Shown here in pieces: positions 5,077-46,682 of a DNA stretch of 64,000 bases. The stretch is from Blasia pusilla (Eukaryota): positions 44,020,001 to 44,084,000 of the forward strand of contig CM114271.1 of assembly GCA_050084515.1 (NCBI GenBank), written 5' to 3'. Numbering within the stretch: the stretch's first letter is position 1; the number at the start of each line of letters is the position of its first letter. The notes under the pieces were generated by a model. The model was not told where the DNA came from. It saw only the letters and a program-made list of their open reading frames with translations, and did not search any database. The translations under genes and the position numbers were made by a program.

Positions 5077-6650
5077 TGTCACATCTGTTAGGATAGATCG
5101 ATGAATTCATGGTAGATTTTCTTTGAGGATATTGGAGGACACTCTGTAGAGATTAAGAATGACATGTTGAGGCCTTGGGTAACTTGAGAGAGAAGATTCT
5201 CCCTTTGTTTTGGCTGATTTAGTGCTATATATATAACCTTATTAGTTCAGGTAATTAATTTTTATAAGTAGAGTTGACTTTCTACTTTGGGAACTGGCCC
5301 TTGACCGCCCCCTCCCTATAGCAGGTCAAGAGTGGCGTGCGGAAGCGTTGCCCGATTTCAGACATAAATTGAGTATGGGGCAAGTTTCTTCATGATAGTG
5401 CTCCCGCCAACACCTTTTAGCTTGCTAGATTTATGTTGCACAAGTTTGGAAATTTTTGTGGAAGAAGTCAATGCGGAAGCATTGCTAGACTCTTTGTAGG
5501 AGTTGAGATCACGTGCTGTAGAACAATCGCTGCCTGTTTGAAATGAAAGGTCAGATGAAGGAGTTGATTTAATGGCATTTTAGATCAAGAAGTCATGTAT
5601 GTTTTCAAAGAAATGATCCAAAATTTTGATGTTGGAGCTCACAGTTGTGGTTATTTTGGTGGGGTTTCCATAGCCAATGTGTGAGGGTAGAAATCCCGAA
5701 ATCTTGTGACTTCCTTTCATGGACTTAGAAAGCAAAAATCCTTTATTTTAGTACATAAGACAAGCAAGGTAAAAGTGATTTGAGGATGACAGTGAGTGAA
5801 AACTTTATTTAGTGGGTGTTGATCCAAGATTTGTGGGGCTTACTAGAGTATGAGCCAAATTTGAGATAATTTTAGTGCGTTGACCCTTTTTTAAAGTGTT
5901 AGTGGAGTGGGAAAGAAAAGATATTGACTTTAGAAGACGGTTAAAATAGAGGCATTTTACTAATGTATGACTTGACACAATTACTATTGATCTTTTTTGA
6001 CCATCAATTGTTCAACCATTATCGCCTCTTTGATGACCGTCAACTCTTTGATGGCTATTGTCAACGGATGGGGTAGAGTTTCGAGGTATGATTTGCCATG
6101 CATGGTGACTTTTAGCCACTTGACATTGATCGAGTATTGTTTTGTGACGCTCGTAGCCAAAATTTATGGTTGATGTATTTCTGTGTTGTGCCGCTCACGA
6201 CCGCACCACACCGTCTCGATCGTAGAGCCGTACCAACAGTGAGGACCGAGGCATGTATTTTAGATAAAAGTGGGGATGCATTTTTTACATGTGTCACATT
6301 CAATCATCGAGTGTCGTGCCTTTTATAACCGTGTTGTGCCGCACCACACCACTGTATCCATAGTGCAGATCGAGGAGGTTTGGGCATCGTCAACATCAAG
6401 GAATACAACTTGCTGAGTGGAGGAATTTCTCTTCGAGACCAAGTTGGGGTTGAGGTTGGCAATTGCAGAGGAGCAACACATACATTGTGTTGCAGAGGAG
6501 CAACACATGGATTTTGGGATATTGGGTAGTTATATGGGATTTTGGGTTTTTGTATATGGATGCTAAGAGCATTGTTGACATATATGGTTAGGGGACATAA
6601 AAATGTGTAGGGTGTCCAAAGTTGAGAATATGTTATGTCGATGAGACAAT
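5077..6650 (+). mobile_element. 5' end of a subfamily-2 DNMT/PHD-Gypsy copy: truncated A repeat plus leader
   Basis: Starts TGTCACATCTGTTAGGATAGAT (the A start). About 5330-6650 matches the reverse complement of the leader at about 60340-62320. Interrupted at 6651 by another copy. Confidence 0.75.
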
Positions 6651-8439
6651 TGTCGTGCGCATACACATCGCTACACAACATAAATTGTTGTCACCAAACA
6701 TACACATAAACACACACGATCCCATGCTAACTCATGGCATCCAAACAACGAGACAAGAAGTACAAAAATATCTCCAATAAATCAATGAAATCTCTCATCA
6801 ATACTCACACCAAACTCTATATGGTGTGCACTCTTGCTCATGCCAAACCAAACTCACTCTCCTAATGAGAGGCTTGGATTACACACACCAGGCCAAGAGG
6901 ACCATAGCTCCGCCGCCTCATGCCAAGAGGTTCAACAAAGAGAGAATCAGCTCTCAAGTTCTCTCTCTTGGAGGTATACCCCCTTCCCTCTCGCAAGCTC
7001 TCTCCTCGGTAATCTACGCTCGTAGGTCATCTCCTTGGTTGTTGACTTGCTGTAGCGGGTCAAGGTCCAATTCCCAAAGTGTAAAGTCAACTATACTCCA
7101 AATGGAAACTTACTTGAAATAGTAAGCTTCTCTAGATGGCTCCGAATGAGCCGGAACGAAGGGAAAACCTGCTCTCTCTGATTACCCGTGGCTTCAGCAG
7201 GTCATCCTCGACCTCTTGAGGCTGTCTTCTAGTATCTCAGAAGGTGCTCTACTAGATCTGACCGATCTATCCTAAAAGACATCACAATTGTTGTGCGTAT
7301 ACACATCGCTACACAACATACATCATTGTCACCGGACATACATATAAAGAGGCACCATCTCATGCTAACTCATGGCATCCAAACAATGAGACAAGAAGTA
7401 CCAAAATATCTCTAATCGCCCTCCTAGTTGGTGGTTAGGTCCCTCTAACTCCAGATAACCATTAATCCCTACCTACCATGACATACATCTCTCGGACGCT
7501 AAGAGCAAGAAGGTCGGGTGCTCATATGGCCCCATCGTTAGTCGCCTTCTTGTCATCCATGTCACAGACACAAGTCGGAATCTAGAACTACCTACTCTAT
7601 ATACATCATGGATACATCCATCGTCCCCAAGGAACCCTAGTGAGAGGTGGCGTCAAACATGCCATATGCTATCCTCTCGAACATCCATCACAGACTAGCA
7701 TAGTGGCTATACCACAGGCAAAACCACACAACATACATCGCAAGCTTGTAGGAATTATTGCTAAACTCAAATCAAATGTATCATCAATGTTCGGAAGATG
7801 ATATGACGCACAGTTACGCACATGGTCCTTCCAAATTATACCATCGCGTCCCTCTAATAAAAGAACACCATATGGAAAAATCTCACGCACTCTCAAGATG
7901 ATGCGTCCTGTAGTCACATCGAACGTTGTGGGTGCCGTCGTTTGTACCCTGGTCTGTCAACACCTCAATTGATGCATTGTAATGCCTCAGCACTCAATCT
8001 AGGAAGGCATACGCTACTCCCTCACTTGCTTTGTCAGGCAATGCAACCAACTCTATCCACTTCGAGAAGTGCTCGACCATCACCAACACATAAGGACTAT
8101 GGCGCTCCGTCAAAGGTAAAGGTCCTCCAAAATCCAAACTCTATCTATAACCTAGAACCATGATCAGAAGTGGATGTAACTGTGGAGTCGGAGCATTGGA
8201 CGATGCTCGGACCCAATCATACACCATGCACTTGGCAATAAACTGTTGGACATCAGTCTGCATGCCTTGCCATCAATATTGTATGTGGAGCAAGCTATAC
8301 GTCCGCTTCACTCCAAAATGACCCAACTCCTCGTGGGCATGACGCAAAAAACGTGCTCTCTGTGAAGGATGAGGTACCTATACGTACTCTACCATCCTCC
8401 CACACTCGTAACACATGTGTCCCCTCCCATCGGAACCCT
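6651..8439 (-). mobile_element. 3' portion of a subfamily-2 copy: integrase/PHD relic, PPT, B1-A2-B2
   Basis: On the minus strand: integrase fragments, PHD (CMLCGFACGIATMLVCDGCSRG), PPT 7416-7427, B1 7289-7415, A2 6778-7286, B2 6651-6777 ending GCGCACGACA. Confidence 0.85.
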
Positions 8440-8596
8440 TGTCGTATAATAAAATCACCCACTATGTAAACTCCTCTATCATTAAGTGTGAGAGAGAGTT
8501 TTATTAGTATTAAGTAAATTAGCCTAGGAAAATGAAATTTCCATGTTTAAACCTCTTTAGGGTGGGTCATTTGTGCAGGCCCAACTTTAGGAAAAG

Positions 8597-9077
8597 TGTC
8601 ACATCTGAGTAGCCGATAGGCCGAGATCTATCGAGGATAGGGCATAAGAGCCAGCGGACTATCTTGAGTGTAACTTTGTCCCACGGTGTCGGATGAGGTT
8701 GATGATAGGTCCATTGTGTCAGGAACGTCGTTCCTGACAACTTTCATGTTGAGGTCTTTTACAGTCAGGTGACTTGTTGACCAGGTCACCCGCCCTTGGT
8801 AACATGTGTGCGCCGGTTACCAAGGGAAGGGCTATTTTTAGGGAAAGAGCCTTTTGGCTCTTCCCAACCCTATATAAGAGAGGAAGATGGCTTTCCTAAG
8901 CCATCTTTCTCATGTTGGGCCGTTGGAGCACATCCCTTGTATGTGTGTGAGCTAGGACTAGGGTGCTAGCGTCCGGATTCCTTGATAGCACAGGGTGGAC
9001 GAGGCTCGATATGCTGATGTAGATTGAGGAGTGGAGTTTTAGGCCGGGTGTGCCGGTTTTACTACTCTTTATTTTTA
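8597..9077 (+). repeat. Terminal repeat A1 of element 1
   Basis: Near-identical to 17754-18231. Starts TGTCAC. Contains TATATAA at 8871-8877. Confidence 0.92.
8871..8877 (+). promoter_or_regulatory. Putative TATA box of the element promoter in repeat A
   Basis: CCCTATATAAGAG is conserved in A1 and A2 (about 18025). TATATA-like runs sit in a similar position in subfamily-2 A repeats. Confidence 0.55.
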
Positions 9078-10480
9078 CATGAGAAAGATGTCAGGGGGCT
9101 AGTGGAAATTCGTTGTTTGCAGGTAGGCAAGCAAGTTGCCTTGGTCAGGAGCCCCTGGAGACGTGTGTGTGACGTTTTATGTGTCATTTTTCTGTTCGGA
9201 AGGCCGTGGGCGGAAGCGCTGTCCGTTTTTCTCAAATTTTGCTGGTGCGGATTGATGGGGGACAGCAGCAGGGTGTAGCGCAGGTTGTGTCGGCAGGAGT
9301 AACGTCGTCTTATAGCTCGTGGAATTTCGGGAGTACCCAGGGAGAAGAGTTAGAGCTTGCAGCCGCCAGGGGGCTGTCAAGTAAAGCGGCCGGTTTAGGG
9401 TTAGGGCGCAGCGGCGACGGGCGACGGACGGGAGCCGACGGGCGGCGACGGGCGTGCACTCCCCCCCTCTCACCTCTCTCCTCCCGCAGGGAGGCCACGG
9501 GCGGACGGCCCCCCCCCCCCGTATTTAGGGCCCAAGGGGCCCGCATAGGGCCGGGGGCCCAAGTTCCCCCCCCTCCAACGTGGTAGCACGGACCATAGTC
9601 GGTCGGGCAGTTGTAGCGAACGTGGTTGGTAGCACGGACGAGGTCGGTCAGGCGAGCGCAATGGCGCATGGGCAACGTGATAGCAGGGAGGACGTCGACG
9701 TGTTGAGTGACCGACAAGTTGAACAGCGGGCGTGACATGATGTTTTTGGGGCGTGACAGGGCGTTGCAAGAGTTTACGATGGAGGGGCTGTGTGCATGAT
9801 GCCGACGGGTTGTCCGCATCTGTTGACGGGAGGATCGACGTGTTGGTCGAGGGGAGTGTTGTGTTGCGGAGATTGTCATCTCATGTGGAGGAGTGCATGT
9901 TGACGGTGTAGCAGGTTGGAGGGCGTGATCAGGTTACCCATTCGAGTCCCTTTTCCCGCACTTGTCGTGTGTGATTGAGAGTGCTGGGTATCAGGTAGTA
10001 GCTGGTGCTAGATGGGTGCAGTGATGGTGACGGGTGTAGATTCTTTTCATGTGTAGCATGTTGGTGGATATACGGCGGTTGCCGAGTAGGGGTCGCGTGT
10101 ATGACCCGAGAGAGTGTCGCTAGGTTAGGTGAGTCAGTTGGGAGGCTCATGGTGAGCCCGAGTGATGAGCGTGCGTGAGGCCGAGTATGTCATCACGGGA
10201 TTGATGTTAGCATAGGTGAGCTAGTGAGGCGTGTGGGAGACTCTCGGTGAGTCTGAGTGCTTGAGCGGGTGAGATAGGGTTTGTCATCACGGCGTTCTTC
10301 CAAGGTTCAGAAGAACGGGGTAGTGCAAGCAGTAGTAGTGGAGTGACACGGAGTGGAGTGAGATACCGAGGGGTTACCAGTGAGGAGCTCCCTCGACATC
10401 TATCTGTGACTGGATCGTCATCACTGGACACTGGGTCTAGTGACGAGATTATCGACAGAGACAGTAGTACTTGGTAGGAG

Positions 10481-12354
10481 ATGGACGACATGGGCCATTG
10501 GGGCATGCGTCTTTTCTCGAGTGCAGTGGGCACCATCGACTTAGATGATTTCATCCAGGAGTTTGACACATGGTGCGACTTCCAGGAGATACGGACCCTG
10601 ACACGGTTCAACCCTTTCATGGCATGGAAGGGGTTGTTCTAGCACTTGGAGGGTCCTCCGATGGATGACTACATGGAGTTTCGATCACTATATTCAGTAG
10701 AGATTGATGCCTGGAGGATGTATTGGGCTCCAGGATATGTGTCCACTAGTGGTCGCGAGGCACATGATGGGATTGTGAGAGGAGAGAGACCCACACCATC
10801 AGCCCGGAGACTAGATGGAGAGGAGGGCAGTGAGATAGGCGATGTGGCAGAGACCTCTGGTGGTAGAGGGCCACCCAGCTTCAGCCCCACAGTGGAGTTC
10901 TTCCGACAGTTGGGGAAGAGCTACCAGGGCGTACGCACCGACAAGCTGAAGAGTCTACAGGATTTTCAGCGAAAATCGGGTGAGAGTCTGAGAGAGGCAT
11001 TCACACACATGAGGAGGCTGATCATGATCATTGCTACGTTTGGAGTGACTGAGGCGCAGTCAGTCCAGTATTGGTATGGGGTTCTGGACCGAGAACTACG
11101 GAGGAGAGTCCGAGATGCGGTGCTGATTCACACACCGAAGCCCACATTGAAGGTGGTCTTTGAGTTGTCTGAGCGTATTGAGCTCAACATGAGTGAGGAG
11201 TAGGTAGTGACCGCTGGATTTTCTCGAGAGTGGACGGGTCCACGAGCGACGGTGACCCCACAGGTGCCACAGCGAGCACCAGTACCACGGGAGTGGGCCA
11301 GTGTGCCTAGAGATCAGGGCGGGTACCATGAGCCTATGAGGCAACGACACACACTTACATATGTTGCCCAGCAGGGAACGATGTGGTCTTGTTGGACGTG
11401 TGGAGGGGCCCATAGGCAGAGAGACTTCCCACAGCATGGGAGAGGACCACCAGCGCCTCCGATTGCTCAGGAGCCATAGAGGATGGCCCCACCACAGCAC
11501 CAGTGTGACCATTGCCATAGATATGGTCACACTAGGGATAGATGTTTTGACCTTCGCCAAGGGGCACGTCCAGGGTAGGCCGAGGGCCTGGGGGCGGTCG
11601 TCTTGGAGGAGGTTGGGGAGTTCTTCCTGGACGTGGTGGTAGAGGACCACCACCAGCCAGAGGAGATGGAGCAGGAGCACCAGAGCCGACACTTCTCTCA
11701 CGCATCGATCAGTTGGAGCAGAGGATTGCTGCCATGACGATGATGCAGCTTAAGGAAGGCACGGAGCTGCGAGCAGCTAGTGTGACTCCAACTTCTACCT
11801 CTTACCCTGACCCGGGTGAGGATCTCGCCAGTATGGGATTCATGTGTAGTGCAGCCCAGGTTGAGGCAGCTGCAGTGGTGACTTGGGGTGCTGCAAGAGG
11901 CACCGAGCCATCGAGAGGTGGAGTTGAGATTGACCCACCAGAGGGGACAGATGGGCGGCAGGCGAGGGTTCCACAGTCGTTCACATTGTCGAAGGCACTA
12001 CACACACCATCGATGGTGCCTCGACGACCAGCGGTGCCTACAGTTCAGGCATCTACGTCGACGTCACGAGGAGTTGGAGTGACAACTCCTATGCCGGCTC
12101 GAGTGGAGTCAGTATCGACTATAGTGTTGGAGGTGGCCACTAGAGTGAGTCAGACTCCGCTATTTTCCGCCATAGAGTTGGCGACGTTGGGAGTTGGACC
12201 AGCTGAGGTGTTTCGGTTGGCCGCCACGTTATGTGAGCGTGGAGAGATGACTGCTTCTTGTTCAGAGGTAGTTGAGGAGGTGGTGGACTTGCCCTCAAAG
12301 AGCGGTCTTTGGGGCGTTCCCACACAGTCATGGCATCTTGGCGGCGGTTGGTAG
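10481..12354 (+). pseudogene. gag: Gag of element 1 (capsid-like region plus two zinc knuckles), disrupted
   Basis: DLDDFIQEFDTWC; LQDFQRKSGESLREAF (retrotransposon gag motif); CWTCGGAHRQRD and CDHCHRYGHTRDRC knuckles. In-frame stops at about 10640 and 11201. The true start may be near 10288. Confidence 0.8.
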
Positions 12355-12860
12355 ATATGCCAGCTCGACCGGCCATAGAGCGAGTAGGGGTGACACCTAG
12401 AGTAGTGTTACTGGATAACAGAGCTGGAGTATTTCGCTTGGTTAGTCCGATGGGGATGGTATACCACCCGAAGCGCATCCTACTTGATTCGAGAGCGCAA
12501 CCCTTGATGTTAGGGAAGGCGGCGTGTTTAGCGTTGGGGTTACGGAAGGCCGACATTGAGCCTTGTCCCTTCCGATCTGAGACCTCGATTGGGGCGTATC
12601 ATTCACTCGAGATATGACTCGACAGAGATTGTTGTCGAGTCCAGCCAGAGCATGCGACGGATAGTGCTATGGTGCGCGACACGTGCGATTACGACACCAC
12701 CGAGTAAATGCGATGTGTTGGTGGGGAGTATAGTGTTATATCCCCTAGGATTCATCCTTGACTTCTGGGAGGAGACCGTTGCTTATCGGCCAGGATGGCG
12801 GTCAGGTGACGGCCGGATGAGTCAGTTACCCGTGCAGTTTGCGGGACGAAGTGGTTGATC
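12355..12860 (+). pseudogene. Aspartic protease domain of element 1
   Basis: ILLDSRAQPLMLG (D-S-G-like active-site position) and the downstream DVLVG motif; frameshifted. Confidence 0.75.
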
Positions 12861-13200
12861 ACGAGGCGAGTCTGTGACCACGTTGGCAGCTTTCACACGT
12901 AGTGTTAGCTGGCCAGGAGAGTTGTTGGAGGGGAACGCACATGCGGAGGATGTCCTAGGAGTGGATAGTCCCACGGAGAGACAGGCCATGGCGGGTGTCT
13001 CTTCCCATGTTGGCGAGGCCTCTTCACCATTATGGGGTACGACTTGGGAGCTACAGAGGAGTGTCGATGACCTCGTGAGGCAGGCGTGGAGTCATGTTTT
13101 TATCCCAGAGCAGCGAGAGTCACGTGGCAATCGGGCTCTTGGAGTGGAGACGATGACCCCACTAGATACCACACCTGTTGTGTGGCAGTGCCCAGAGGAG

Positions 13201-14150
13201 GGTGTTAGGGTGTTAAATCTCTTCGGAGGGATTAGCACCGGATTGGCGGCACTATTGCAGGCGGGCATACGGGTGCATCAGTACCTTTATGTGGAGAGAG
13301 ATGAGACCGCGCGGCGAGTATCATTACGTCACGTGGCGAGATTGATCCAGAGGTATACTGAGTTTTTGTCGGTATCTGCAGTACGGGGATACCAGCATAT
13401 GCTACCCGCCGACATCTCTTTAGTGGGGGCGCAGGATCTGGATAGAGTTGGCACCATTCATTTGGTGATTGCTGGATGGCCATGTCAGGGTCATTCATCA
13501 GCTGGCCGAGGATTTGGATTGCAAGATCCGAGGTCAGGAATGTTTTGGGAGATGCTGCGAGTATTACGACACTTGCAAGAGAGTCAGATATGTTCTCCAG
13601 CGTACATTTTGGAGAACGTGCCGTTGTTAGGAGACACTCGTGCACATGTGATGACGAGTGTACATCATGTGAGGTCCTGGTTGGGACCTGCTGTGTTGTT
13701 AGATGCAGCGAGAGTTGGGGTCACGTGCCCATCGTCCACGACTGTGGTGGGCGAACCTGATACCATCAGAGGTACTGAGTCGAGCATACGGTGGAGTCCA
13801 GAGAGCACCACATCTCACAGTGGATGCTATTTTGGGCTCAGGGCGTCGATCTCAGGTGGTGACACGGGATGATAGACCATCGTTGGCCATGGCCAATAGG
13901 GTGGGGGAGTTGAGGGCAGCCTTACCTATGTTGGTGAGCTTCCCAGCATCCCATGCCTTTCGTCAGGGAGGGCCATGCATGATTTGGGATGAGGTGACCG
14001 GAGCATTGGAGGAGCCTATAGCAGATGAGCACGAGCGCGCCATGGGGTTCACTACCGGTACTACGGTGGTGCGAGGGATGATTGAGGCATCACGGAGACA
14101 GGTGTTGGGGCAAGCGATGGACCTCAACTGTCTCACATGGATAGTACTAG
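13201..14150 (+). pseudogene. DNMT3/DRM-like C5 cytosine DNA methyltransferase domain embedded in pol (one frameshift at about 13718)
   Basis: Motif I VLNLFGGISTG (from 13210), II YLYVERD, IV LVIAGWPCQG (PC at 13480), DPRSGMFWE, VI YILENV (13612), VIII AHRPRLWWAN, IX EHERAMGF, X RRQVLGQAMD. Confidence 0.93.
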
Positions 14151-14452
14151 GTATGGCTGAGCAGAGACGGATGCGAGTGTCATCCATGCCGTCACGTCCA
14201 CGAGTTGGACCACTGCCTACAGGGTCTGTACATGCATTGGTTGGGGGCGAGATGAGGAGAGATAGGCACCCATGGACTTCCTGGGACGTCGTACCAGCAG
14301 AGAGTGCAAAGGCGGCTAGAGTAGCACATGTTCATTTTTCGGATGTGGAGCATGGTGTAGGAGGTCAGAGTGGAGTGGCTGTTGTGGAGGTGGCTAGGGT
14401 TGCTACATAGCAATCAAAGCCGGAGGATGCGTCCTCTCCGAGTGAGGTCACG

Positions 14453-16020
14453 ATGGAGACTTGGGAGCCTGTGATAGGTCTCAAGTTGATAGGAGGAGAG
14501 CGACGGCGAGTTCATAGGTTTTTGAGAGGGCATGTCAGTTGTTTTGCCTCCAGTATGAGAGACTTGGGTACGCTGAAGGGTCCCGGGATACGGATTGAGT
14601 TGGCTAGTGATACGCCGATCTTTCGTCGACCCTATAGGTATTCTGATATGAAGTGAGCCTTGATTCAGAGCGGCAGGGAGAGGACTTGTTGGAGGCAAGA
14701 CTTGTGGAGTTATCACATGGGGAGTATGCATCCGCCACGCAAAGTGATGCGGCGAAGAAGGATATGTATGGAAATTGGACGGATAGGCGGATGTGTGGAG
14801 ATTACCGTCCTATCAACCGCAGCAGACGAGGTCGATTGGTACGCCATGCCTACTCCCGAGGAGATCTTTGATACGGTAGGGCATGCAAAGATCTTCAGAT
14901 ACTTTAGATCTCCGTGTTGGCTATCATCGCCTTCCTATCAAAGGTTGGAGGACAGGAGAAGACAACATTCTAGGGATAGATCGGTTCGGGAGAGATTGCT
15001 TGTATCGGTGGCGGTTCTTACCATTTGGATTGAAGAACGCGCTGCATGGAGTTTCGAGAGAGTGATGCATAGGATTCTGGCTGGCTTGGATTTTGTACGA
15101 TGTTACATAGATGATATTCTTATCTTGATTCCACGGTTGAGGAGCATGAGCGACACTTGGAGGAGGTGTTTGGCGATTGCGTTACATGGACTGAAGTTAC
15201 ATCCGGCAAGTGCAGATTCTTTCAAGAGCAGATTGAGTACTTGGGACACACCATATACCCGAGTGGGTTAGGCGTTCAGACGAAGGTAGAGGCTATTCTT
15301 GCAGATTCCACGCCCTCTGAGATGTGAGTCGAGTCAGAGCATTTCTTGGACTCGAGAACTTCTATCGACGATATGTCAAGGGTTTTAGTGCGATCGCAAA
15401 GTCTTTGACCTTGTTGACAAGACTTGATCAGGTTTGGTTGTAGGGAGATGATCAAGAGCGAGCATTTCAGGAGCTCAAGGATAGGTTGACGTCCTCACCC
15501 ATTTTACAGAGACCGGTTAGGGGTCGCCCATTCCAGTTACATACGGATTGGAGCATGTTGGGTCTAGGAGCAGTGCTTACTCAGAGGGATGACGAGGAGA
15601 GGGAGTTCGTTGTGGCTTACGCGAGCCGATCGAACAACATTGCAGAGGCAAAGTACAGCTCCTACGAGGGAGAGTGCTTGGCTGCAGTGTGGGCCGTGGC
15701 ACATTTTAGGTGCTATTTATTCGGAAACCCTTTCACACTTATCACTGATCATCAGCCGTTGATGTGGTTGATGGAGTCCGACAAGCTTACGGGAAAGCTT
15801 GCCAGGTGGGCTCTATTACTACAGGAGTATGAGTTTGAGGTGGTTCATAGGCGAGGTCGGCTGAACCAGGATGCGGATGGGTTGAGTCGTAACCCATGTC
15901 CGAGTCAGAGAGACGTCAAAGGAGCTCTATGGCACGGAGAGAGTGATGAGGAGATGGTGCCCGGTTGGCATGCATCTGCCTATCTTTGTTGGTTGACTAT
16001 GGTAGGTCAGCCACAGGTGA
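14453..16020 (+). pseudogene. pol: Reverse transcriptase and RNase H of element 1 (frameshifted)
   Basis: RMCGDYRPIN, LDLRVGYH, LPFGLKNA, CYIDDIL. RNase H: LHTDWSMLGLGAVLTQ...VAYASR...YSSYEGECLAAVWAV...TDHQPL. Confidence 0.93.
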
Positions 16021-16159
16021 TGACTCTAGTGGTGGGGTTGGATGATGAGTCTTTGGATCCGGAGGTTAGTGAGGAGGCGGATGGTGTGGTCGTGATATCC
16101 ATGACGACGTGGAGGTTGTGGAGTTCTTGCAAGACCTTTGGCGTCATTAAGAAAGTACA

Positions 16160-17537
16160 GTGAGTGCTAGGGAGCGCGATCAGATCCTACAGAGAGCCAA
16201 GAGGTTCAGGTGGGAGGGGACTCACATTTTGCGGGTATGGGGAGATGGTAGGATACGAGTTGTACCTTATCCTTCCCAACGAGCACGTGTAGTGCGACAT
16301 GCCCATGAGGAGTTGGGACATTTCGGAGTAAAGCGTTGACTTACTCCAGGTTCAATATTGGTGGCGCGGCATGCATACTTTGGGTACAACAGATTTGTGG
16401 CGGATGTATGGTATGTGACATAGTGCGAGCATCCTTCAATGCTCCCACTCATGATTACATCCTTTGCCGATTATGGGTTTAGGTTATCGGTGGAGTTTAG
16501 ACTTTGCGGGACCTTTGCAATTGTGTGAGGCGTCATCATAGGTACGTGTTGGTCATGGTGGAGCATTTCTCCAAGTGGATAGAGTTGGTGGCACTACCAG
16601 ACAAGGCGAGCAAGGGAACAGCTTATGCGTTTCTAGATCGTATGCTTAGTCACCTTGGTGCACCGGCGGAGGTGTTGACTGACCAGGCTACCGAGTTCAG
16701 GGGAGAGTTTCAGGCCTTGTGTGATCAGGCGCTCATAGATCACCGCACCACGTCCAGAGATCATCCTGAGGCGGATGGGTTGGCGGAGAGAGTGGTACAG
16801 ACGGTGAAGAGAGGATTGCGCAAGTATGGCTTGCAGCGGGGATAGTTGAGGGAGTGGGACCTACAGTTGCCATGGTTGGCTATGGATTATCGCTTTAGTC
16901 GGCAGGCATCCTTGGTGTCATTTTCACCGTACTTTTTGCTCTTTGGGAGAGAGCCAAATTTACCTGCAGTGACTCGACGTGACATGGCGGAGGTGTTAGA
17001 TCTTGATGATCCAAATGTGTGGGTACAAGCATGTTCTCAGAGGGCAGAAGTTTTTCATAGAGTTATGCCTATGGCCTTTGAGAACTTAGCTATTGCCCAA
17101 CATAGAGATACATTGAGGTACGCGACCATTCGTGGAGGAGGTTATCATCCAGAATTAGGAGGTTTCATCATGGCGATTACGTGTATTTACAACAGGCAGC
17201 ACCCACGACGCTAGATGTCACTGCAGGGCGCACGATCCTACGTGTGCGCGAGGTATTACCGACCGGAGTCCTCATATTGGAGGGATGGGATGGTATGGTT
17301 TGGAAGGATCATGTGCGCAATTGTGCACCATGTCATCTTCCGAACGTAGATGGGACGGTGGATCCGAGCTTGGCAGTGGTACGTGCATGCTTGAGGTGTA
17401 TGTTGTGCGGATCTGCGAGGGGTGCAGCCACCATGTTGGTATGTGATGGTTGTTCTCGAGGGTGGCATATGTCATGTCTGACCCCCCCTCTTGATGTGGT
17501 TCCCACGGGACAATGGATGTGTCCGAGATGTGTATAG
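16160..17537 (+). pseudogene. pol: DDE integrase with C-terminal PHD finger of element 1
   Basis: HAHEELGHFG (HHCC start), WSLDFAGP, VEHFSKWIE, VLTDQATEF, HPEADGLAERVVQTVK. C4HC3 PHD CMLC...VCDGCSRGWHMSCLTPPLDVVPTGQWMCPRC, then stop. Confidence 0.93.
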
Positions 17538-17603
17538 GGTAGTAGGTCATGTCAGAGAGATGTGATATTTTCTATCTGGAGTTAGGGGGATCCAACTTCC
17601 AGC

Positions 17604-17614
17604 TAGGGGGGCGA
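17604..17614 (+). other. Polypurine tract immediately before repeat B1
   Basis: TAGGGGGGCGA followed by TTG. The same motif precedes B in four other copies (7416-7427 minus, 36521-36531, 47252-47262 minus, 57908-57918). Confidence 0.8.
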
Positions 17615-18368
17615 TTGTGTGATCTCCATGTATATGTATGAGTTGATTTTTGTATATGTGTGGATCGACCCGTGTGTGGGGAAGATCGATGTTGTGTGGT
17701 GTAGATGTGACGAGCGATGTATGTTGTGTAGCGATATGTATCGCACGGCAATTTATCACATCGAGTAGCCGATAGGCCGAGATCTATCGTGGATAGGGCG
17801 TAGGAGCCAGCGGACTATCTTGAGTGTAACTTTGTTCCACGGTGTCGAATGAGGTTGAGGATAGGTCCATTGTGTTAGGAACGTTGTTCTTGACAACTTT
17901 TATGTTGAGGTCTTTTACAATCAGGTGACTTTTTGACCAGGTCACCCGCCCTTGGTAACCTGTGCGCAGGTTACCAAGGGAAGGGCTATTTTTAGGGGAA
18001 GAGCCTTTTGGCTCTTCCCAACCCTATATAAGAGAGGAAGATGGCTTTCCTAAGCCATCTTTCTCATGTTGGGCCGTTGGAGCACCTCCCTTGTATGTGT
18101 GTGAGCTAGGACTAGGGTGCTAGCGTTTGGATTCCTTGATAGCACAGGGTGGGACGAGGCTCGATATGCCGATGTAGATTGAGGAGTGGAGTTTTAGGCC
18201 GGGTGTGCGTTTTTACTACTCTTTATTTTTGTTGTGTGATCTCCATGTATATGTATGAGTTGATTTTTGTACATGTGTGGATCGACCGGTGTGTGGGGAA
18301 GATCGGTGTTGTGTGGTGTAGATGTGACGAGCGATGTATGTTGTGTAGCGATATGTATGCGCACGACA
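17615..18368 (+). repeat. 3' composite repeat B1(17615-17750)-A2(17754-18231)-B2(18232-18368) of element 1
   Basis: ttgtgtgatctccatgtatatgtatgagttg...gcgatatgtat(g)cgcacg(g/a)ca occurs twice, flanking a full copy of A. Confidence 0.92.
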
Positions 18369-19587
18369 AAAGAGAAAATAAATAAAAGATGGATTATAAA
18401 AGTAAAGTAGTGGGATTGCTGCTTTAATAAAAGAAAAACAAAAGTAGTCTTGGTTGGTGGCTAGGATAGTTTGGGTAGTTTGGAAGATATCAAGTGAGTT
18501 AAGGAGGATATTTTTGAAGAGATAAGAGGTAATCTACTTGTGTCAAAATATGATTGACAAAGCCTTGAGAGGAAGCAATGTGGCACAAGATAAGATAAGC
18601 CCTATTTCATACTCTTGTGGATCTCTTGTGAGTATATAAAGACGAGGGACCTTCAAGGGTTCATCACCTTCTACTTCACATCTTGAATTTCTTGCATCAC
18701 TCTTGAGTGGATGGCTTTGGAATTGCTTGATTTTCCAATGAGAGTGGATTATCCTTCTTGGGAGAGTAACTTGGCCATGGTCTATTATTTGAGAGGTTTC
18801 TAGAGTGTGGTATGTGTGGAGATGAGAGACTAGTCACCTTAGAAAAGTTTAGTCATACTAAAGATAATGAATTTTTTGGCTTGATATTTTGCCAATGAGA
18901 GTGGATTATCCCTCTTGGGAGAATTGTTCCGCCAAAATCCAATCTTGAGGAGAGTAGAGAATGTCCGTCAAGTATGGATAGGGATAGACCACGAGTTGTG
19001 CCCTATTTTCCTTTCCTTAACTCGTACCACGTGAAGGTTCTCTTTGTAGATAGGTGTTGGTTTACTCGCTATCTATTTTATCATTTTCGGGAGGTTTTCA
19101 TGAACTAGGTAATGCAATCTCCAACTTCCGTGATTCTTCCTATTGTCAGGTATGGGAGGCCATAGGATTGTATGTTGTATGTTTTTATATAAAAATCCAT
19201 GGATCTTAATAGACCTACTCAAGTAAGGTTTAATACAGTTGTGCAATTTTCCTTGTGTACAAACGTAAAGTACTTTATAGAGACTTCATAGTTAAGAATT
19301 TCGGGGTTCGATGTTATGAAGAAGTGATCGCCTCGGCACTATCATTCGTGATTGCTGTCGTGAGAGAATGGAGGGTTTATATAATAATTTTGTACTGAAA
19401 AAGGAGAACTACTTATAGAGTTTGGCTTGCATTATCCACGCCTATTGCAGCTAGGAGGTCCGCCCTTACTCTTGGAAAAGCTCTCGACACGACAAATGGT
19501 GCTTTTGCTGAGAGCTCTTTGAGGTGGTTGATTTTGTTTACAAGTTGGAGTCTTATCGAGTTGACTACTTTTGGTAGTACTTCATCA

Positions 19588-23944: not shown

Positions 23945-26620
23945 TATCACTCTTGCAAAGTCTCAACCCAAATGAAGTTGTGACCACAACTTTAAAAATG
24001 ACCTTTTAGACCTGCAACACTAAACCTTGAATGAAAAAAAAAATCTTTAATTTTTCATCTTGTCCAACGTTTCCATCTTGAGCTGAAATTTGGCCCACAT
24101 GGTCTCCAAGGTACATGTAGTACTATTGCTAAGCTTCATGCCAAATGGAGTTGGGACCTCAAGCTCAAAAATTTCCAAGTCCTTTTAGGACCTCAACCAT
24201 TAGACCTTCTCTCAAAATAATGTTTTTTATTTTTCATCTTGTCCAACTTTCTCATCTTAAGCTGAAATTTGGCCCACATGGTCCCCAAGGTTCATGTTCC
24301 ACTCTTGAAAAGTTTCAAGCAAAATGGAGTTGGGACTACAAGCTCAAAATTTTCTAAGTGTTTTTAGGACTCGAGCCATCACACATTCTATGAAAATAAG
24401 GTTTTTTTGTTTTCATCATCTCTAACTTTCTCATCTTGAGCTCAAATTTGTCCAACATGATCCCCAAGATTCATGTTCTATTCTTGCCAAGTTTCAAGAA
24501 AAATGGACTTGTGAGAAAACCTCACAAATTAATAACTCCTTTTCGAACCCGAACCACCAGACTTTCTCATTTTTCATCTTGTCCAAATTTTTCATCTTGA
24601 GCTCAAATTTGGCATACATCATCCCCAAGGATCATGTTCTACTCTAGCCAAGTTTGGAGCAAAAATTAACAAATCCTTCTTTGACTCGAACCATGGGACC
24701 TTTTATCAAATTAAGGTTTTTTTCATTTTTCATCTTGTCCAACTTTCCCATCTTGAGCTGCACTTTGGCCCATACAGTCTCCAAGATGCATGTAGCACTC
24801 TTGCCAAGTTTCAAGAAAAATGGAGTTTGGACCTCAAGCTCAAAAATTGGTAAGTACTTTTTTGACCCGAACTATCATATCTTCTATGAAAATAAGGTTT
24901 TTTCATTTTTCATCTTGTCCAACTTTCTCATCTTGATCTCAAATTTGGCCAACATGATTCCCAAGGTTCATGTTATACTCTTGCCAAGTTTTAAGCAAAA
25001 TGAATTTGTGAGAAAAACCTCAAAAATTAATAACTTCTTTTTGGACCCAAACCATCAGACCTTTTATCAAATTAAGGTCTTTTAAATTTTCCTCTTGTCC
25101 AAATTTCCCATCTTGAGCTACAATTTGGCCCACACGGTCTTCAAGGTGCATGTATCATTCTTGCCAAGTTTCCAAAAAAAAAGGAGTTGTGAGCAAAACT
25201 TCACAAATTAATAAGTCCTTTTTTGACCCAAACCATCACACCTTCTATCAAATTAAGGTTTTTCTTCATTTTTCATCTTATTCAATTTTCCCATCTTCAA
25301 CTGAAATTGGGCACACATTTTTCCCAGGGTGCATATTCCACTCTTTCCAAGTTTCAAGAAAAATGGATTTATGAGCAAAACCTCACAAATTCATAACTCC
25401 TCTTTGGACCCAAACCATCAAACCTTTTATCAAAATAAGGATTTTTCTATTTTCATCTTGTCCAAATTTCCCATCTTGAGCTCCATTTTGGCTCATAGGG
25501 TCTCTATGGTGCATGTAGCACTTTTGTCAAGTTTCAAAAAAAATGGAGATGAGACCACAAGCTCAAAAATTTCCAAGTCCTTTGACCCGAACCATAAGAC
25601 CTTCCAAAGGGGTTCATTTTTCATCTTGTCCAACTTTCTCATCTTGAGCTGAAATTTGGCATACATAATCCCCAAGATTCATGTCCTAATTTTTCCAAGT
25701 TCCAAGAAAAATGGAGTTGTAAGCAAAACCTCACAAATTAATAACTCTTTTTTAGACCCGAACCATCAAACCTTCTAATTATAGAAATAATGTTTTCTCA
25801 TTTTTCGTCTTGTCCAAATTTCTTATCTTGAGCTGAAATTTGGCTCACATGGTCTCCAAGGTTCATGTTACACTTTTGCCAAGTTTCAAGCAAAATGGAG
25901 TTGTGACCATAAGTTCAAAAATTGGCAACTCCTTTTTTGACCTGAACCAACAAACCTTGAATAAAAAGAAGATCTTTTTATTTTTCCACTGGTCCAACTT
26001 TCTCATCTTGAGCTGAAATGTGGCCCATATGATCTCCAAGGTGCAAGTAGCACTCTTGCCAAGTTTTAAGCAAAATGGAGCTCGGAGAAAAACCTCAATA
26101 ATTGGTAAGTCCTTTTTGGACCCAAATCATCAATCCTTGAATGAAAATAGGGTTTTTTCATTTTTCATCTTGTCCAGATTTTCCATTTTGAGCAAAAATT
26201 TGTCCCACATGGTCCCCAAGGTGCATGTTCCACTCTTGCCAAGTTTCAAGTAAAATGGAGTTGTGAGAAAAACCTCACAAATTAATAAAGTGTTCACAAA
26301 TTAAGAACTGAAAAACCTCACAAATTAATAACAAATATCATGTTGTCCAAATTTTCTATCTTGAGGTGAAATTTGGCCCACATGGTCTCCCAGATGTATC
26401 TAGTAGTGTTTCCAAGTTTTACCCAAAATGGAGTTGTGACCAAAACCTCAAAAATAGTAAGTACGTAACCCTAAACCATTAAACCTTCAATGCAAATAAG
26501 GTTTTTTCATTTTCCATCATGTCCAACTTTCCCAAGTTGTCTTTGTAGCACTCTTGCAAAGTTTTGAGCAAAATGGAGTTGTGACCATGAGCTCAAAATC
26601 ACACTTGCCAATTGGACCTT
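23945..26620. repeat. Diverged tandem array, ~180-bp monomer, about 15 copies
   Basis: The motif ttttcatcttgtccaa...atcttgagctgaaatttggccca...ctcttgccaagtttcaag recurs at about 24051, 24231, 24411, 24727, 24907, 25088, 25269, 25449, 25801, 25981 and 26161. Confidence 0.92.
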
Positions 26621-28131
26621 CAATGTAAAAACGAATGCTTTATTAGCGAGAAGGTTATAAAAGGAATGTCATAAAAATGACATTCTTACAATAGTCAACA
26701 AAAAATAAGTTTTCTACAACTATCTACTAATCTGTTTGACTAAATTTACTAATTACTCTTCTAGTCTAGGTTGATGGTTGGGTAATTAATATTTTAATTC
26801 TAGTGGATTAAGATGTAAGCGGTAATTTGACGGCTCAATAGTTCGAAGTAAGGTGGATCAGCGACAAGTTCCTATTTCAGTTGTTTCATCGTCGGAGGAA
26901 ATGTATGAAATATCCATGCCATGATTGATTGGTTGAGAATTTGGAACCATAGGTATGAGAACATCATTATTGTTAGGCTCATCAACTAAGTCCACCGTTT
27001 CAACGCTTAAATATTATGGAGGAGTATCCCGCATAGGTTCACTAGACTCGGTGGAACAATTCTGAACTCCTATTGGTGCAAAAATCTGAGGGTCGTAGGT
27101 TGTATTAGGAGAAGTGTTGGGCAGATTGGATTCGCTTGAAGCTCTCCGTTGTTGCTCTTCCTCCTGCTCTCAAATCCAATGTTCCATTTGAATCTTCCAA
27201 GCCTCTCGGAGTCAAAATTTTCAGATTTTCCGATATGAGTATCCTCTCTCCCTTTGATGCCATGAATTCCGCATATCACATCCGCCTCCTTTAGGTCCTC
27301 ATCTTGCAATTCAAGGTTATCTTCATGATTACTATCACGGTTTCTTGCATGCAAGCTAGATTCACTGCCATCTTCTACTACCCTTCTAGCTTGTTCTTGT
27401 CCATCCCTTTCAGAAAAGTATTGCTCATACAAGAGCGCTTCTCTTGATTTTCGAGAAACACCCTTGTCTGCAAATGGTGAGTTTGTGTAGATGTACACCA
27501 AATCCCTGGCATGCTTGTTGGTCAATTTATTCCTGTGCTTGTTGTGGATGAAACCATAACTACTCCAATTTCTCTCTGTTGAAGAAGATGAAACCACTTG
27601 TGCTAATATGGACTTAGCCACAGAGCGCAATGTTGGTGCACCTTGACTGTGCATGCTCCACCAATAAGAGGGGCCAAGTGAATCAACTACTTCCCTACCA
27701 AACTCATCCACAAATAGTTCTTCATGGTTCATAATGTTGCCAAACTCTTGCAAGCAAGTAGCCACATAAAAATTAGCCTTGGTGACATAGAGGTCATGCA
27801 CCCCCTTTGCATAGAGTTTCAGATATTGTTTGAAATCTCTTATGCACTCATCATTTGAAGTGACGTCTTGAACAATATCAAGAAGATTGTAAGGGGCGAG
27901 AATGTAGCCTATTGCATGTAACTTGTTGTGGATAAGTGCCCACCACCTAGAAATAACATCAATCATCTCCGTAGCTCTAGACATTGTGACAAAATAATCG
28001 CGACACCTTCCACCCACACCGGGCCATGGAGTTACAAGAAAAGAACGAGTCTCTTCCATTATCTAAAAAATATGGCGATAAATACATGCCGTCATTGCTT
28101 TATCACCATCACACTCTCTCAATAGAATAAT

Positions 28132-31100
28132 TGTGAGAAAACAGAATGTGATGAAATCGCTCAAATCTATTACAAATCTTGGAGATACAAAGTGGCATAG
28201 TCCGTCCATGCGCTCACAGAAGAGCTTCGATGGAACCTGAACATGGAGATAACTCGACATATGAGAATGCGCTATCGCTGCGACTCTCGGCTATTCCACT
28301 ACTCGAGAAACTAAGGTTTTTAACCTATTTTTCTTTATTTTTATTAATAGAAAAATTTTGCATCAGGATGCAAGGCATCTTGATGCAATATAGGGTTAGA
28401 TAGTCCTAGTAACGCTACTCCAAAAACCACCTACGTCATATTACTATGACTCCTTCGATGTCTAAGTCGGAACCATCAATCTAGGCTTCTCCTCATACAA
28501 GGGGGCCGATCACATTAATGGTGCTCAAAGAAATGGATGTTGAGAATCCAACACCCCCCCTCAATATCCACTCTCATATGGACTATTGTCTTGTACCGAT
28601 GCCAAGACCCATCAAATGTCGTTGAAGCTGATCTCCGCTCAAAGCTTTCGTGAAGATGTCTGCACGGTTATCCTCTGTTGGACAATAGACTAACTTCAAA
28701 ACCTCTCTCTTGATCAACTCACGAACAAAATGAAACGGGATCTCTATGTGTTTTATAGGAGCATGAAACACAGGATTATGTACTATGGCAATTCAACTCT
28801 GATTGTCATACCACATTACCGTAGCACTATCTGGTGCTTCTCCTATGTCCTTATATATCCATCTCAACCATACTGCTTCACAAGAAGCATGACAAGCCGT
28901 CTTGTACTCTGCCTACGTAGAAGAAAGAGCCACTGTAGGTTGCTTCTTGTTGACCCATGACACCACACTTGATCCTACCAAGAAAAAATAACACGAAACT
29001 GATCTTCGAGAATCTAAGTCTCCTGCCCAATCCGAGTCACAAAAGGCACTATTGAGTAAGACATCACCTATGGAGCACAGATCATTTCGGTCCGTGCTCC
29101 ATAGGTGATGTCATACTCGATAGTGCCTTTGATGTACTTCAACACATGAATCTCTGCCTTCCAATGATTCTCACGAGGCTTAGTTGAGAACCTACTCAAC
29201 ACTCCCACAACGGAGTTAATGTCTGGTCTTGTGTTGCACAAAAATATCAAATTTTCCATAAGCTTTCTGTACAACTTTTCATCTACCGATGGTGCAACAT
29301 CCTTCATTGAGAGTTTCAACTCTATCTCCATTGGCGAGACCACTGCCTTACACTCGATCATCCCGAATCCCTTTAAGATTTCTCTAGCACACTTTTGTTG
29401 AGAGAGAAAAATAGAATTGACTGTTGCCAAATCTCGAGCCCTATAAAGTAGTGCAAAAGATCTAAATTTGACATTTCAAACTCAGATTTCAACACATCTT
29501 TCATTTCTCTATTTTCTTACTGTGGTATCTTGTGATGATCAGATCATCCACATACAAGACTATCAACATATACATCCCATCTTTGCAAAATACATACAAA
29601 TTTTCTTCTGATGGACTCTTGATGAGACCCCTCTCTCGTAAGAATGTTTCTATTCGTTGATACCATACCCTTTGGGCTTGCTTCAACCCATACAATTCTC
29701 GATGAAGCAAACACACTTTCTCTTCTGATCCGGGTGTCTCAAAACCAGGTGGTTGACATACATACACCTCCTCCTTGAGACTCCCGTTCAAAAAAGTAGA
29801 CTCCACATCGTATTGGTATACATGCCAACCTCTTGTTCCTGCCACCGCTAGAACAATTTGAATGGTTGTCATCCTTGCATTAGGAGCAAAAGTCTTATAG
29901 TAATCAAAACCTTTGATCTGTGAACATCCTTGTGCAATCAACCTTGCTTTGAGTGTATCCAATGTACCGTCCGCCTTGTACTTGGTCTTGTACACCCACT
30001 TGGTGCGTATTATCTTCTTGTCCTTTGGCTTCTCAACCAAAGTCCAAGTTTCATTTCTTTCAATAGTGTCCATCTCCATCTGTATGACCTTTCTCCATTG
30101 AGGATGAGCAAGAGCTTCATCCAAGCATGATGGCTCCTCCACCTTCAAGACCTCTATCATCAAGGCCATGTTGACGAGATGTGCAGAAGCTCTATCCTCT
30201 AGTCTCTTGGATCTCCTTGGATGTATAACAATCTTCATCAATTGCTGGTGGATCCTTATCATCCAAGAGCTCTTTTATCCACTTAGAGTATGACGACTGT
30301 AGTGGAAGAGCAAAGTGCTCTTTGCAATCATCACCAAATTCTTCTTCTTGATGATCAGGTGTAAATATTGATGGTGTGCTTTGGTGGGTTATCTCTTTAT
30401 TTGATGATAATGTGGACGGACCACGGATATCCGCTACTTGACGAGGCTCTTCTTGGAAGACCACATCACGACTCACAAGCATCTTCTTTGCCTCATGACA
30501 CCATACTTGATAAGCTTTAGACTCATCATTGTATCCTATAAAGATGCACTTCCTACTCTTGGACTCCGGCTTGGTCCTTGATGCTTCACGAATATGTATA
30601 AGCACTCACTACCAAAAGTCCTGAAGCATTGGACTGATGGTACCTTACTTGAGTATGCTTGATGAGGAGTCATGCCTTGCACTGACTTGGTAGCACTTAT
30701 ATTTAGAATATAAACGGTAATATTAAGAGCTTCAGCCCAAAATCCTTCTGTCAAACCTTTTGCTTTCATCATACATCTTGCCATCTCCACCACTGTACGG
30801 TTTCGACGCTCAACAACTCCATTTTGTTATCGTGTATGTGCCATGGTTAACTATCACTTGATTCCATGCTCCCCCAAGTATTTATTGAATTCTGTTGATA
30901 AGAATTCTCCTCCTCGATCAATGCGAAGCTTCTATACCTTCTTTCCTGTCTCATTCTCAACCAACTTGTGCCATACTTAAAATTTTCCAAAAGCACTAGC
31001 CTTAGCACGAAGGAAATACACCCACATCTTCCTACTATAATCGTCGAAAACTAAAAAGAAGTAGGAAGAACCACCTAATGCCAATGTTCTCATTTTACCA

Positions 31101-45500: not shown

Positions 45501-46412
45501 ATGTAGTCCAAGTGATGTCATCACTAAATGTTGCTAATTTCACCACCTCTCATGGCACCTCTCATGGTTTCCACTTTGTCACACCACTAGTGAACGGTAA
45601 TATTAATGGTAAGGATCTAACTTGTTACTAATTTCACTACCTCTCATGGTTTCCACTTTGTCACACCACTAATGAACAATAATATTAATGGTAATGATCT
45701 AACTTATGAAGTAAACCAAGACCTTACAAAGTGAGGTGGCTTCCAAGTTTGTTGTGGCAATCTCTTGAAAGAACTTCTAGAAAGTAGGAGTTTGATTGTG
45801 CTCCGCAATATCCCAAGATATCTCTTTGTCCACAGATCCAAATCAATCTAACTATACTCCATTCGAGTTCTCTCATGGCAAGTATTATTATTGTCATGAC
45901 CCTCAAAACCAATGACATGTCCACGCACAACATCATAACTCAAGTAGGCTCAAACTAGGATGAAAATGTGTTAGAGTCTCATGAGCAAGATACACATTGC
46001 AAAAGTGAGACGCAAAGCCTTGATGGGTATTGTGCGCATGCACATTGCTACACAACATACATCATTATTACCAAAAAAAAAAAAACACAAGATGTCATAG
46101 TCGCTTGTGGTTGGGAGCAGATTAGCCCCCACCAACAGTTTTCCATGATGATCATTCTTAATCCTATAGCCATATAGGGAATATATGTTTCAACTTACAT
46201 CTTGAGCTATATTCAGATAGAGTGCTAGAAAGGGCATTAGAGTTAGTTGGCAGTCCAAGTGAGGTTAGAGGTTGTCTTGTAGGTGGAAGATGAGGTGGAT
46301 ATACCCATAGGGGAGGTAGATTTTCACATGGAGGGCTTAGAAGTCCACTATCTAGACAAGTCAAGGAAGACCCTAAGTGTAAGGTTGGGATGGCTGCTCA
46401 GAAAGAGCAGTA

Positions 46413-46591
46413 CATCACATATACATCACATCACTACACAACATATATTGTTGTCACCAAATGCACAACATACAAAACACACGAGATCCCATGTCAACTC
46501 ATGGAATCCACACAACGAGATGAGAAGCACCAAAATATCTCCAATAAATCAAGTGGAACTCACTCACAACAAGATCTCACAAATATGCACA

Positions 46592-46682
<91 letters not shown>

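Follow-up and report, generated by a model that had tools for sequence, protein, structure and literature searches.

Two insertion ends abutted inside a DNMT3-carrying Ty3/Gypsy-type retrotransposon of Blasia pusilla, and a possible joined-end route to their use

A 64,000-nucleotide stretch of the Blasia pusilla genome (contig CM114271.1, positions 44,020,001 to 44,084,000 of the forward strand; hereafter the window) contains a 9.8-kb retrotransposon, E1 (8597-18368, plus strand), in whose 3' part the two ends by which the element is inserted into its host DNA lie head to tail at the junction of two of its repeats, B1 and A2. We believe, with somewhat better than even confidence, that this junction is the pair of termini recognized at the level of the integrase in a DNMT3-carrying Ty3/Gypsy-type element, and that the pair lies abutted inside the long terminal repeat (LTR) made by reverse transcriptase (RT). 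Since both insertion ends are found head to tail inside the element, the integrase probably cuts this internal site and not the tips of the DNA copy. More tentatively, and at rather less than an even chance, we propose that insertion obligatorily passes through a form with joined ends, either a two-LTR circle or a concatemer, which is opened at the built-in palindrome, the tips of the linear cDNA being unusable for insertion. Our analysis covers this one window, in which E1 is the sole complete element besides seven partial and mostly decayed copies, and its statements on function are made in silico.

Self-BLAST comparison of E1 gives the order A1-internal-B1-A2-B2, with 94.8% identity between A1 and A2 over 479 nt and 96.4% identity between B1 and B2 over 138 nt. 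A1 comprises 480 nt (8597-9076; all E1 features are given on the plus strand), B1 extends from 17615 to 17750 and A2 from 17754 to 18230, and a single G at 18231 separates A2 from B2 (18232-18368). The element has the tips TGTCAC...CGACA and is flanked on both sides by copies of the 5-bp target duplication AAAAG (8592-8596 and 18369-18373); its undamaged terminal copies read TGTCACATCTG from 8597 in A1 and ...GCGCACGACA in B2, ending at 18368. The B2 terminus of a second, truncated element, E3, which E1 immediately adjoins, also reads GCGCACGACA (6651-6660, minus strand) and abuts internal sequence of a further element, Y, which is the host of E3. This end is fixed by an empty site, as the paralogous region of element X (around 60347) passes the site uninterrupted. 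A short likeness between the sequence that follows E3 B2 and the start of A was considered as a possible A repeat and rejected, since the same sequence is also present in the uninterrupted X paralogue and hence belongs to the target. The AAAAG duplication of E1 and the empty-site paralogue of E3 B2 thus establish the start of A and the end of B as the true insertion ends. Of the features expected of a Ty3/Gypsy element, TG...CA tips and a duplication of 4-6 bp are present, as seen on the one complete element, whereas identical terminal direct repeats are absent, the left terminus being A and the right terminus B.

The partial copies show the same arrangement. E2, E3 and E5 (minus strand) and E4 (plus strand) have kept internal-B1-A2-B2, and E6 (plus strand) has kept internal-B with the terminus GCGCACGATA (58036-58045), after which foreign sequence takes the place of A2-B2. 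X (minus), Y (plus) and W (minus) are 5' ends, in which flanking DNA leads into A1 and then into internal sequence. Five of the six visible 3' ends (E1-E5; B2 of E2 ends at 2040) consist of internal-B-A-B followed by unrelated flank. The A1 starts of E1, X (A1 at 63024-62494, minus) and Y (TGTCACATCTG at 5077-5092, plus), three of three, are preceded by unrelated sequence and never by B. The copies fall into two subfamilies, E1 versus E3, E4 and E5, and the A repeats of X and W belong to the second. As a separate observation, Y (A1 at 5077) and E4 (B2 end at 37291) have derived bases in common, and their flanks nearly match (CCCAA and CCAAT, with an offset of one base); this is suggestive only, and the two may be one old element that was later entered by E3, by other transposons and by the satellite.

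Within the elements the two ends meet again. The layout of a B end ...CGACA, a spacer of 2-3 nt and an A start TGTCAC... is found in E1, E3, E4 and E5 and, in decayed form, in E2. The junction reads CGCACGGCA-ATT-TATCAC in E1 (17742-17759, with the spacer ATT at 17751-17753 and the TG at the start of A2 decayed to TA), CGCACAACA-AT-TGTGATG in E3 (7297-7280, minus), GCACGATA-GT-TGTCATAT in E4 (36633-36650, plus) and GCATGATA-GT-TATCACG in E5 (47132-47116, minus). Direct rereading of the letters bears out these four junctions as they had been described in a first-pass annotation of the stretch, and an old, decayed copy missing from its list is added by E2 (GTGCATA-GT-TAGTAAAC, 2914-2930, minus). 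The spacer measures 2 nt in three of the four clear copies (AT, GT and GT) and 3 nt in E1. Compared with the ancestral core given by the undamaged terminal copies, CGACA-(A/G)T-TGTCAC, the internal junctions have by our own count accumulated nine transitions, one transversion and one indel. The palindrome as such comprises TGTC/GACA only, as in ordinary LTR tips; the feature that exceeds chance is the internal meeting, in all readable copies, of two ends that have each been verified independently as insertion ends.

Conservation around the junction is strong on one side and short on the other. The last 37 nt of B (17714-17750 in B1, ending ...CGCACGGCA) are 84%, 68% and 84% identical between E1 and E3, E4 and E5, respectively, as compared to 31%, 38% and 31% for the body of B, and the top-scoring 37-column window in the whole alignment of E1 with these three elements starts at 17715. 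The conserved block extends to the right as far as the terminal CA and stops there. On the other side, the first 11 nt of A agree at 11 of 11 positions between the A1 repeats of E1 and Y and at 7-9 of 11 in the other four copies, and positions 12-40 of A, with 14-22 matches in 29, are barely above the ~50-60% found for the rest of A in a gapped global alignment. The anchor ATGTTGTGTAGC occurs 23 times at no more than two mismatches, where 4.9 occurrences are expected and none of 100 shuffles reaches 23; ten of the 23, with one mismatch at most, are B ends. Hence the conservation across subfamilies claimed in the first-pass annotation stands for the end of B, and on the A side it is weaker and confined to about 11 nt. 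Neither a random spacer nor a lack of excess conservation, which had been named as grounds for giving up the idea of a recognition site, is found here, as the spacer is held to 2-3 nt and the B side is strongly conserved.

The landmarks of reverse transcription lie in another register. A primer-binding site (PBS), ACATGAGAAAGATG (9077-9090, 14 nt), directly follows A1 and is the perfect complement of the motif CATCTTTCTCATGT (8902-8915) within A1, which starts 31 nt past the first T of a TATA box, TATATAAG (8872-8879). None of 5000 dinucleotide shuffles of A matches this anchored 14-nt complement, and in the minimum-energy fold of 8902-9095 (z = -4.26) the PBS is base-paired with the 5' end. 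The complementarity suggests self-priming of the Tf1 type by a transcript that probably starts about 305 nt inside A1, as placed from TATA spacing only, with its predicted first bases at the CATCTTTC motif. In X, a 12-nt pairing is found between TTCTCTCTTTGT (about 62669-62658) and the PBS ACAAAGAGAGAA (62493-62482, minus; the A1 and PBS region together spans 62482-63024), again matched in none of 5000 shuffles, and W, which retains a partial A1 and the PBS (63147-63347, minus), shows a 9-nt pairing between TCTCTTTTT (about 63302-63294) and AAAAAGAGA (63155-63147) that is matched in 41 of 5000. Moreover, a compensatory change distinguishes X from W, the primer ...TTTGT facing the PBS ACAAAG... 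in the former and the primer ...TTTTT facing AAAAAG... in the latter. The primer motifs of X and W lie ~30-45 nt past a TATA-like box, and in E1, X and W alike the complementarity begins at the first base after A. A PBS of the tRNA type was rejected, as A1 is not adjoined by a site beginning with TGG, the first TGG being ~28 nt away. The A repeats of subfamily 2 also carry a (GA)n tract between the TATA-like box and the primer motif.

At the other end of the internal region, a conserved purine-rich block (17585-17614, ending in AGGGGGGCGA at 17605-17614) directly precedes B1 and is a putative plus-strand primer, or polypurine tract (PPT). It is 70-77% identical across the subfamilies and stands before B1 in six of six copies, that of E2 being degenerate. 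E1 thus carries, as judged in silico, a PBS beside its 5' repeat and a PPT beside its 3' repeat, as is expected of Ty3/Gypsy elements. The joint between A2 and B2 consists of a T-run, one A or G and TTG in four of four readable copies (T-run, G and TTGTGTG in E1, 18231-18368 for the G and B2 together), so that the last base before the PBS is fused to the first base after the purine tract, that is, the end of U5 to the start of U3 (the unique 5' and 3' regions of the LTR).

In the standard scheme of LTR replication it is the PBS and the PPT that set the start of U3 and the end of U5 in the LTR of the cDNA. Under this scheme the landmarks imply that U3 starts at B and that the repeated region R together with U5 corresponds to the last ~175 nt of A. 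Because the PBS directly follows A1 and the PPT directly precedes B1, the LTR made by RT would be B·A and the cDNA would have the structure (B·A)-PBS-internal-PPT-(B·A), whose tips ATTG... and ...TTT lack TG and CA and should not be substrates of the integrase. Each LTR would then contain the TG/CA pair at a depth of one B repeat (136 bp in E1), and the cDNA would carry the B/A palindrome twice. By the same scheme, the inserted form A-internal-B-A-B is a circular permutation of the cDNA, and A2/B2 is an LTR-LTR joint that is exact to the base. An LTR of the form B·A would place the junction inside each LTR and would require an intermediate with joined ends. As the RNA is predicted to start inside A1 and B2 would never be reverse-transcribed, B1/A2 alone would serve as a heritable template for the two ends; the earlier proposal that the junction is stored internally as such a template therefore holds by logic, B1/A2 being the sole copy of the tips that passes through RNA. 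In the part of A that would belong to U3 we also note a 32-nt near-perfect palindrome (17949-17980), which is present in both A1 and A2 of E1.

What would such an element do in order to insert? The landmarks of reverse transcription and the insertion ends, as marked by the target-site duplication (TSD), are shifted against each other by one B repeat, and the inserted structure would therefore be reachable only if the ends of the cDNA first join and the internal site is then cut. We suggest that the cDNA ends would be joined either as a two-LTR circle by host end-joining or through an end-to-end template jump, the joint surviving as the precise A2/B2 joint. The integrase would bind the B/A palindrome in the PBS-proximal LTR and cut on the 3' side of each CA, so that the 2-3 nt spacer would remain as an overhang, and the permuted linear A-internal-B-A-B would be inserted with a stagger of 5 bp. 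Ordinary and modified strand transfers were worked through on paper, with the PBS at the start of A2, with the plus-strand primer at the end of B, with read-through into B2 or with direct integrase cuts at both junctions of the linear cDNA; they give B-A-internal-B-A, B-A-internal-B or A-internal-B, and never A-internal-B-A-B.

Several points weigh against this proposal. The observations, made on the DNA of a single 64-kb window, include no circle, concatemer, transcript end or cleavage product. Since a two-LTR circle has two identical B/A sites, insertions of the form A-B-A-internal-B would be expected as well, yet none of the three visible 5' ends has it; only E6, with internal-B followed by flank, could fit such a form, and recombination between B1 and B2 could explain E6 equally well. 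CA and TG are both intact only at the internal junction of E3, and as the others have lost CA or TG, these junctions are dead and cannot show activity. The fold of X lacks the pairing with the PBS (z = -1.56), because the 5' end of X pairs with the internal GA repeat instead. Finally, the lopsided conservation, 37 nt of B as opposed to ~11 nt of A, is not predicted by binding of the integrase alone. The B-side block may have another role, for instance in 3'-end formation, which is conceivable because the 3' end is the one place where R-U5 has B downstream of it.

This last point is the mainstay of an alternative that we regard as unlikely while taking it seriously, namely that the junction is a passive by-product, the integrase needing just 4-6 terminal bases and the 37-nt end of B being kept for a different task, be it as a GU-rich element for 3'-end formation (B2 lying downstream of the R-U5 of A2), as a control element of U3 or as a packaging signal. 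B is indeed GT-rich, in the inserted form it stands just downstream of R-U5 solely at the 3' end, and its conserved end (68-84%) is matched on the A side by only about 11 nt. However, the conserved block reaches and ends at the terminal CA, and a by-product alone leaves the permuted architecture unexplained; the idea is, moreover, compatible with a joined-end intermediate cut at the junction. Somewhat more doubtful is a replication in the manner of the DIRS, PAT and Ngaro elements, in which RT would build a closed or bridged cDNA with B1/A2 as the bridging template for the missing tips, independently of host end-joining, and the DDE integrase would merely stand in for a tyrosine recombinase at the last step; to this reading we give only a small chance. 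The layout is identical to that of split direct repeats, the sole published remark on such Gypsy elements, in the accessible part of its source, equates their repeats with the structure of a DIRS retrotransposon (PMC5890265), and the single shared base at the A2/B2 joint would suit a template switch. Yet the PBS after A1 and the PPT before B1 are landmarks of the ordinary LTR type, which give B·A LTRs without bridging; no template-switch path leading from them to A-internal-B-A-B could be derived, no recombinase was found in the E1 open reading frames (ORFs), and a 5-bp duplication is present.

Might the integrase instead act on the linear cDNA, cutting at the A start and the B end and inserting A-internal-B, with the B-A-B tails arising secondarily by recombination or conversion? 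E6 looks like such a product, since its internal-B ends in an exact B tip and then gives way to foreign sequence. We nevertheless consider this very improbable, as five of six visible 3' ends carry A2-B2 with an identical joint to the base, as A1/A2 (94.8%) and B1/B2 (96.4%) of E1 are equally young, and as a copy of the form A-internal-B would have no 3' R and so be unable to replicate. That the whole pattern reflects chance resemblance or an artefact of assembly is scarcely credible: the core of the palindrome has just 4 bp per side, but the layout recurs in five elements that represent two subfamilies, differ in age and occur in both orientations, and E1 and E3 are backed by a TSD and an empty-site paralogue, respectively. 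The cutting of an abutted pair of ends after joining of the cDNA is the explanation we put forward.

In textbook LTR retroelements the tips of the linear cDNA are inserted, and circles in which the LTRs have been joined are seen as by-products. If our proposal is true, the element described here would be a natural retroelement that uses a junction pathway in the style of IS3 and IS30 and a living counter-example to the view of LTR-LTR circles as dead ends. Its confirmation would account for the presence of 'DIRS-like' repeats alongside a Gypsy integrase, would suggest that split direct repeats originate as a circular permutation of tandem LTRs, and would provide a natural and, in hosts of the Marchantia type, genetically tractable system for the use of junction substrates by a DDE integrase in vivo. 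On the practical side, standard LTR finders are expected to place the boundaries of such elements wrongly.

The reading frames of E1 are broken and encode, in this order, a gag-like protein, a C5 cytosine methyltransferase, RT, a Gypsy-type RNase H, a DDE integrase core and a C-terminal PHD finger. The methyltransferase ORF (12859-13872, frame-broken; PF00145, E = 6.4e-10) is placed between a protease-like region and RT. All 26 of its PDB matches are DNMT3A/B/C or plant DNA methyltransferases, essentially all of them DNMT3A/B/C, and its relatives comprise 102 proteins of near length and 29 longer ones, those that are named belonging to Marchantia, Calypogeia and Sphagnum; none of the relatives found is a named Klebsormidium protein. 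Relatives with PF00145, RVT_1 and RNase H fused are present in Marchantia. The RT and RNase H region spans 14657-16163, with a YIDD motif in the ORF 14657-15271 and PF17917 and PF17919 in 15444-16163; RVT_1 itself is matched by the homologue in E6 (54616-55650). The integrase region (16501-17537) contains the rve core (PF00665, E = 5e-13) and at its C-terminus a PHD finger (PF00628, E = 1.5e-11; 17397-17531), in the position that the chromodomain holds in chromoviruses. This bears out the DDE integrase that had earlier been assumed to act at the junction, and none of the 28 E1 ORFs of at least 90 aa matches a recombinase family, tyrosine recombinases included. The order RT - RNase H - DDE integrase is that of Ty3/Gypsy pol.

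The surrounding DNA is eukaryotic and repeat-rich, with microsatellites, a ~180-bp satellite and nested transposons. The 5'-truncated E6 (52830-58045), with its exact B tip, is flanked by direct, 77% identical repeats of antisense gag (52087-52829 and 58045-58809). These had first the appearance of an 'A' repeat, which was rejected, as tblastn and alignment identify them as antisense gag of neighbouring minus-strand elements; a short likeness of 52093-52112 to the sense strand of X did not extend. The flanking repeats may reflect a long target duplication, a rearrangement or an alternative form of insertion. B2 of E5 is interrupted at 46076-46426 by a ~350-bp fragment of gag sense from the same family in opposite orientation, which ends in a run of 13 A and has a ~32-bp duplication of B at both sides; these features suggest a partial transcript that was polyadenylated and retroposed. 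A MITE-like (miniature inverted-repeat transposable element) repeat of ~330 bp with inverted ends is found at 2064-2392, 35994-36294, 59670-59996, 47834-47908 and 49705-49808; one copy lies inside B2 of E2 with GGCAATGAT at both sides, and a longer copy of ~2 kb interrupts E5. The satellite (24011-26539) is a tandem array of about 14 copies with a period of ~180 bp, and long (CT)n microsatellites occupy 555-790 and 46590-46680, the second inside the A repeat of E5. Unrelated transposons at 27070-28062 (minus), 29501-30274 (minus), 28132-28431 and 32512-32811 include an ORF with a hAT dimerisation domain and a Copia-type RT (RVT_2), the latter between 87%-identical direct repeats.

Among known systems, the closest by description is KnitGypsy-Dnmt3 of the alga Klebsormidium nitens, which has a Gypsy-type pol with a DNMT3-like domain in its polyprotein (de Mendoza et al. 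2018, PMC5890265) and whose A-coding-B-A-B repeats are likened to those of a DIRS retrotransposon in the legend to Fig. 4c of that paper (PMC5890265). A DNMT3-type methyltransferase inside a Gypsy pol and DIRS-like A-coding-B-A-B repeats are both found in E1; its relatives, however, are of bryophyte type (Marchantia, Calypogeia, Sphagnum), and its integrase is followed by a PHD finger. A lineage 'streptophytes (Gypsy-DNMT3)' is treated as known in a 2026 preprint (10.64898/2026.05.21.726589). The accessible passages of these two sources (PMC5890265 and 10.64898/2026.05.21.726589) contain nothing on termini, TSD, PBS and PPT or mechanism, nor do the supplements of PMC5890265, its largest aside, contain anything on termini, and we found no other description of, or mechanism for, a Gypsy element with DIRS-like repeats in the literature beyond PMC5890265. 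Thus the layout A-internal-B-A-B in a Gypsy-DNMT3 element has already been published for an alga, unexplained in the accessible part of that report (PMC5890265), and E1 is a member of bryophyte type. As far as the literature searched shows, the offset between the PBS/PPT register and the insertion ends and the predicted self-priming are new.

PAT, Toc, Kangaroo and Ngaro elements have split direct repeats and a tyrosine recombinase and are described, in the passages available, as lacking TSDs (PMC8969392, PMC4157794). They resemble E1 in the A1-internal-B1-A2-B2 layout and in an internal B1/A2 junction that corresponds to the joined ends; E1 differs in its DDE integrase, in that no recombinase was found and in its 5-bp TSD, so that it departs from the PAT/Ngaro-type DIRS elements in two defining features. 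Self-priming, the pattern of Tf1/sushi elements, is predicted for the plant Tcn1 clade of Ty3/Gypsy, which occurs in mosses (Neumann et al. 2019, PMC6317226), and the accessible text presents both groups as ordinary LTR elements with chromodomains (PMC6317226). E1 would resemble them in its predicted self-priming, as the PBS adjoining its 5' repeat can pair with the start of the RNA as placed from TATA spacing. As compared by description, it differs in the PF00628 PHD finger that takes the place of the C-terminal chromodomain, in its DNMT domain and in having its termini offset from the LTR.

The integrases of prototype foamy virus (PFV) and human immunodeficiency virus type 1 (HIV-1) specifically cleave the palindromic LTR-LTR junction, according to the accessible parts of the two reports (PMC1180852, PMC1905944). 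In these two-LTR circles, as is proposed here, a DDE integrase acts on an internal ...CA-nn-TG... palindrome of abutted ends to yield processed linear DNA. In retroviruses, however, the palindrome arises only after circularization, between the LTRs, and its use is at most facultative, whereas in the present element each LTR would contain it from the outset, and its use seems to be needed to reach the inserted structure. In the insertion sequences IS3, IS30 and IS911, inverted ends abutted 2-3 bp apart form the circle junction, and the DDE transposase that acts on this junction is related to the integrases of retroviruses. These are DNA elements, their junction is transient and the bases of its spacer come from the donor flank, whereas in the Blasia element the spacer is inherited within the element itself. 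With this difference, the opening of the junction that we propose resembles, by analogy, the action of the IS3 and IS30 transposases on circle junctions of abutted inverted repeats.

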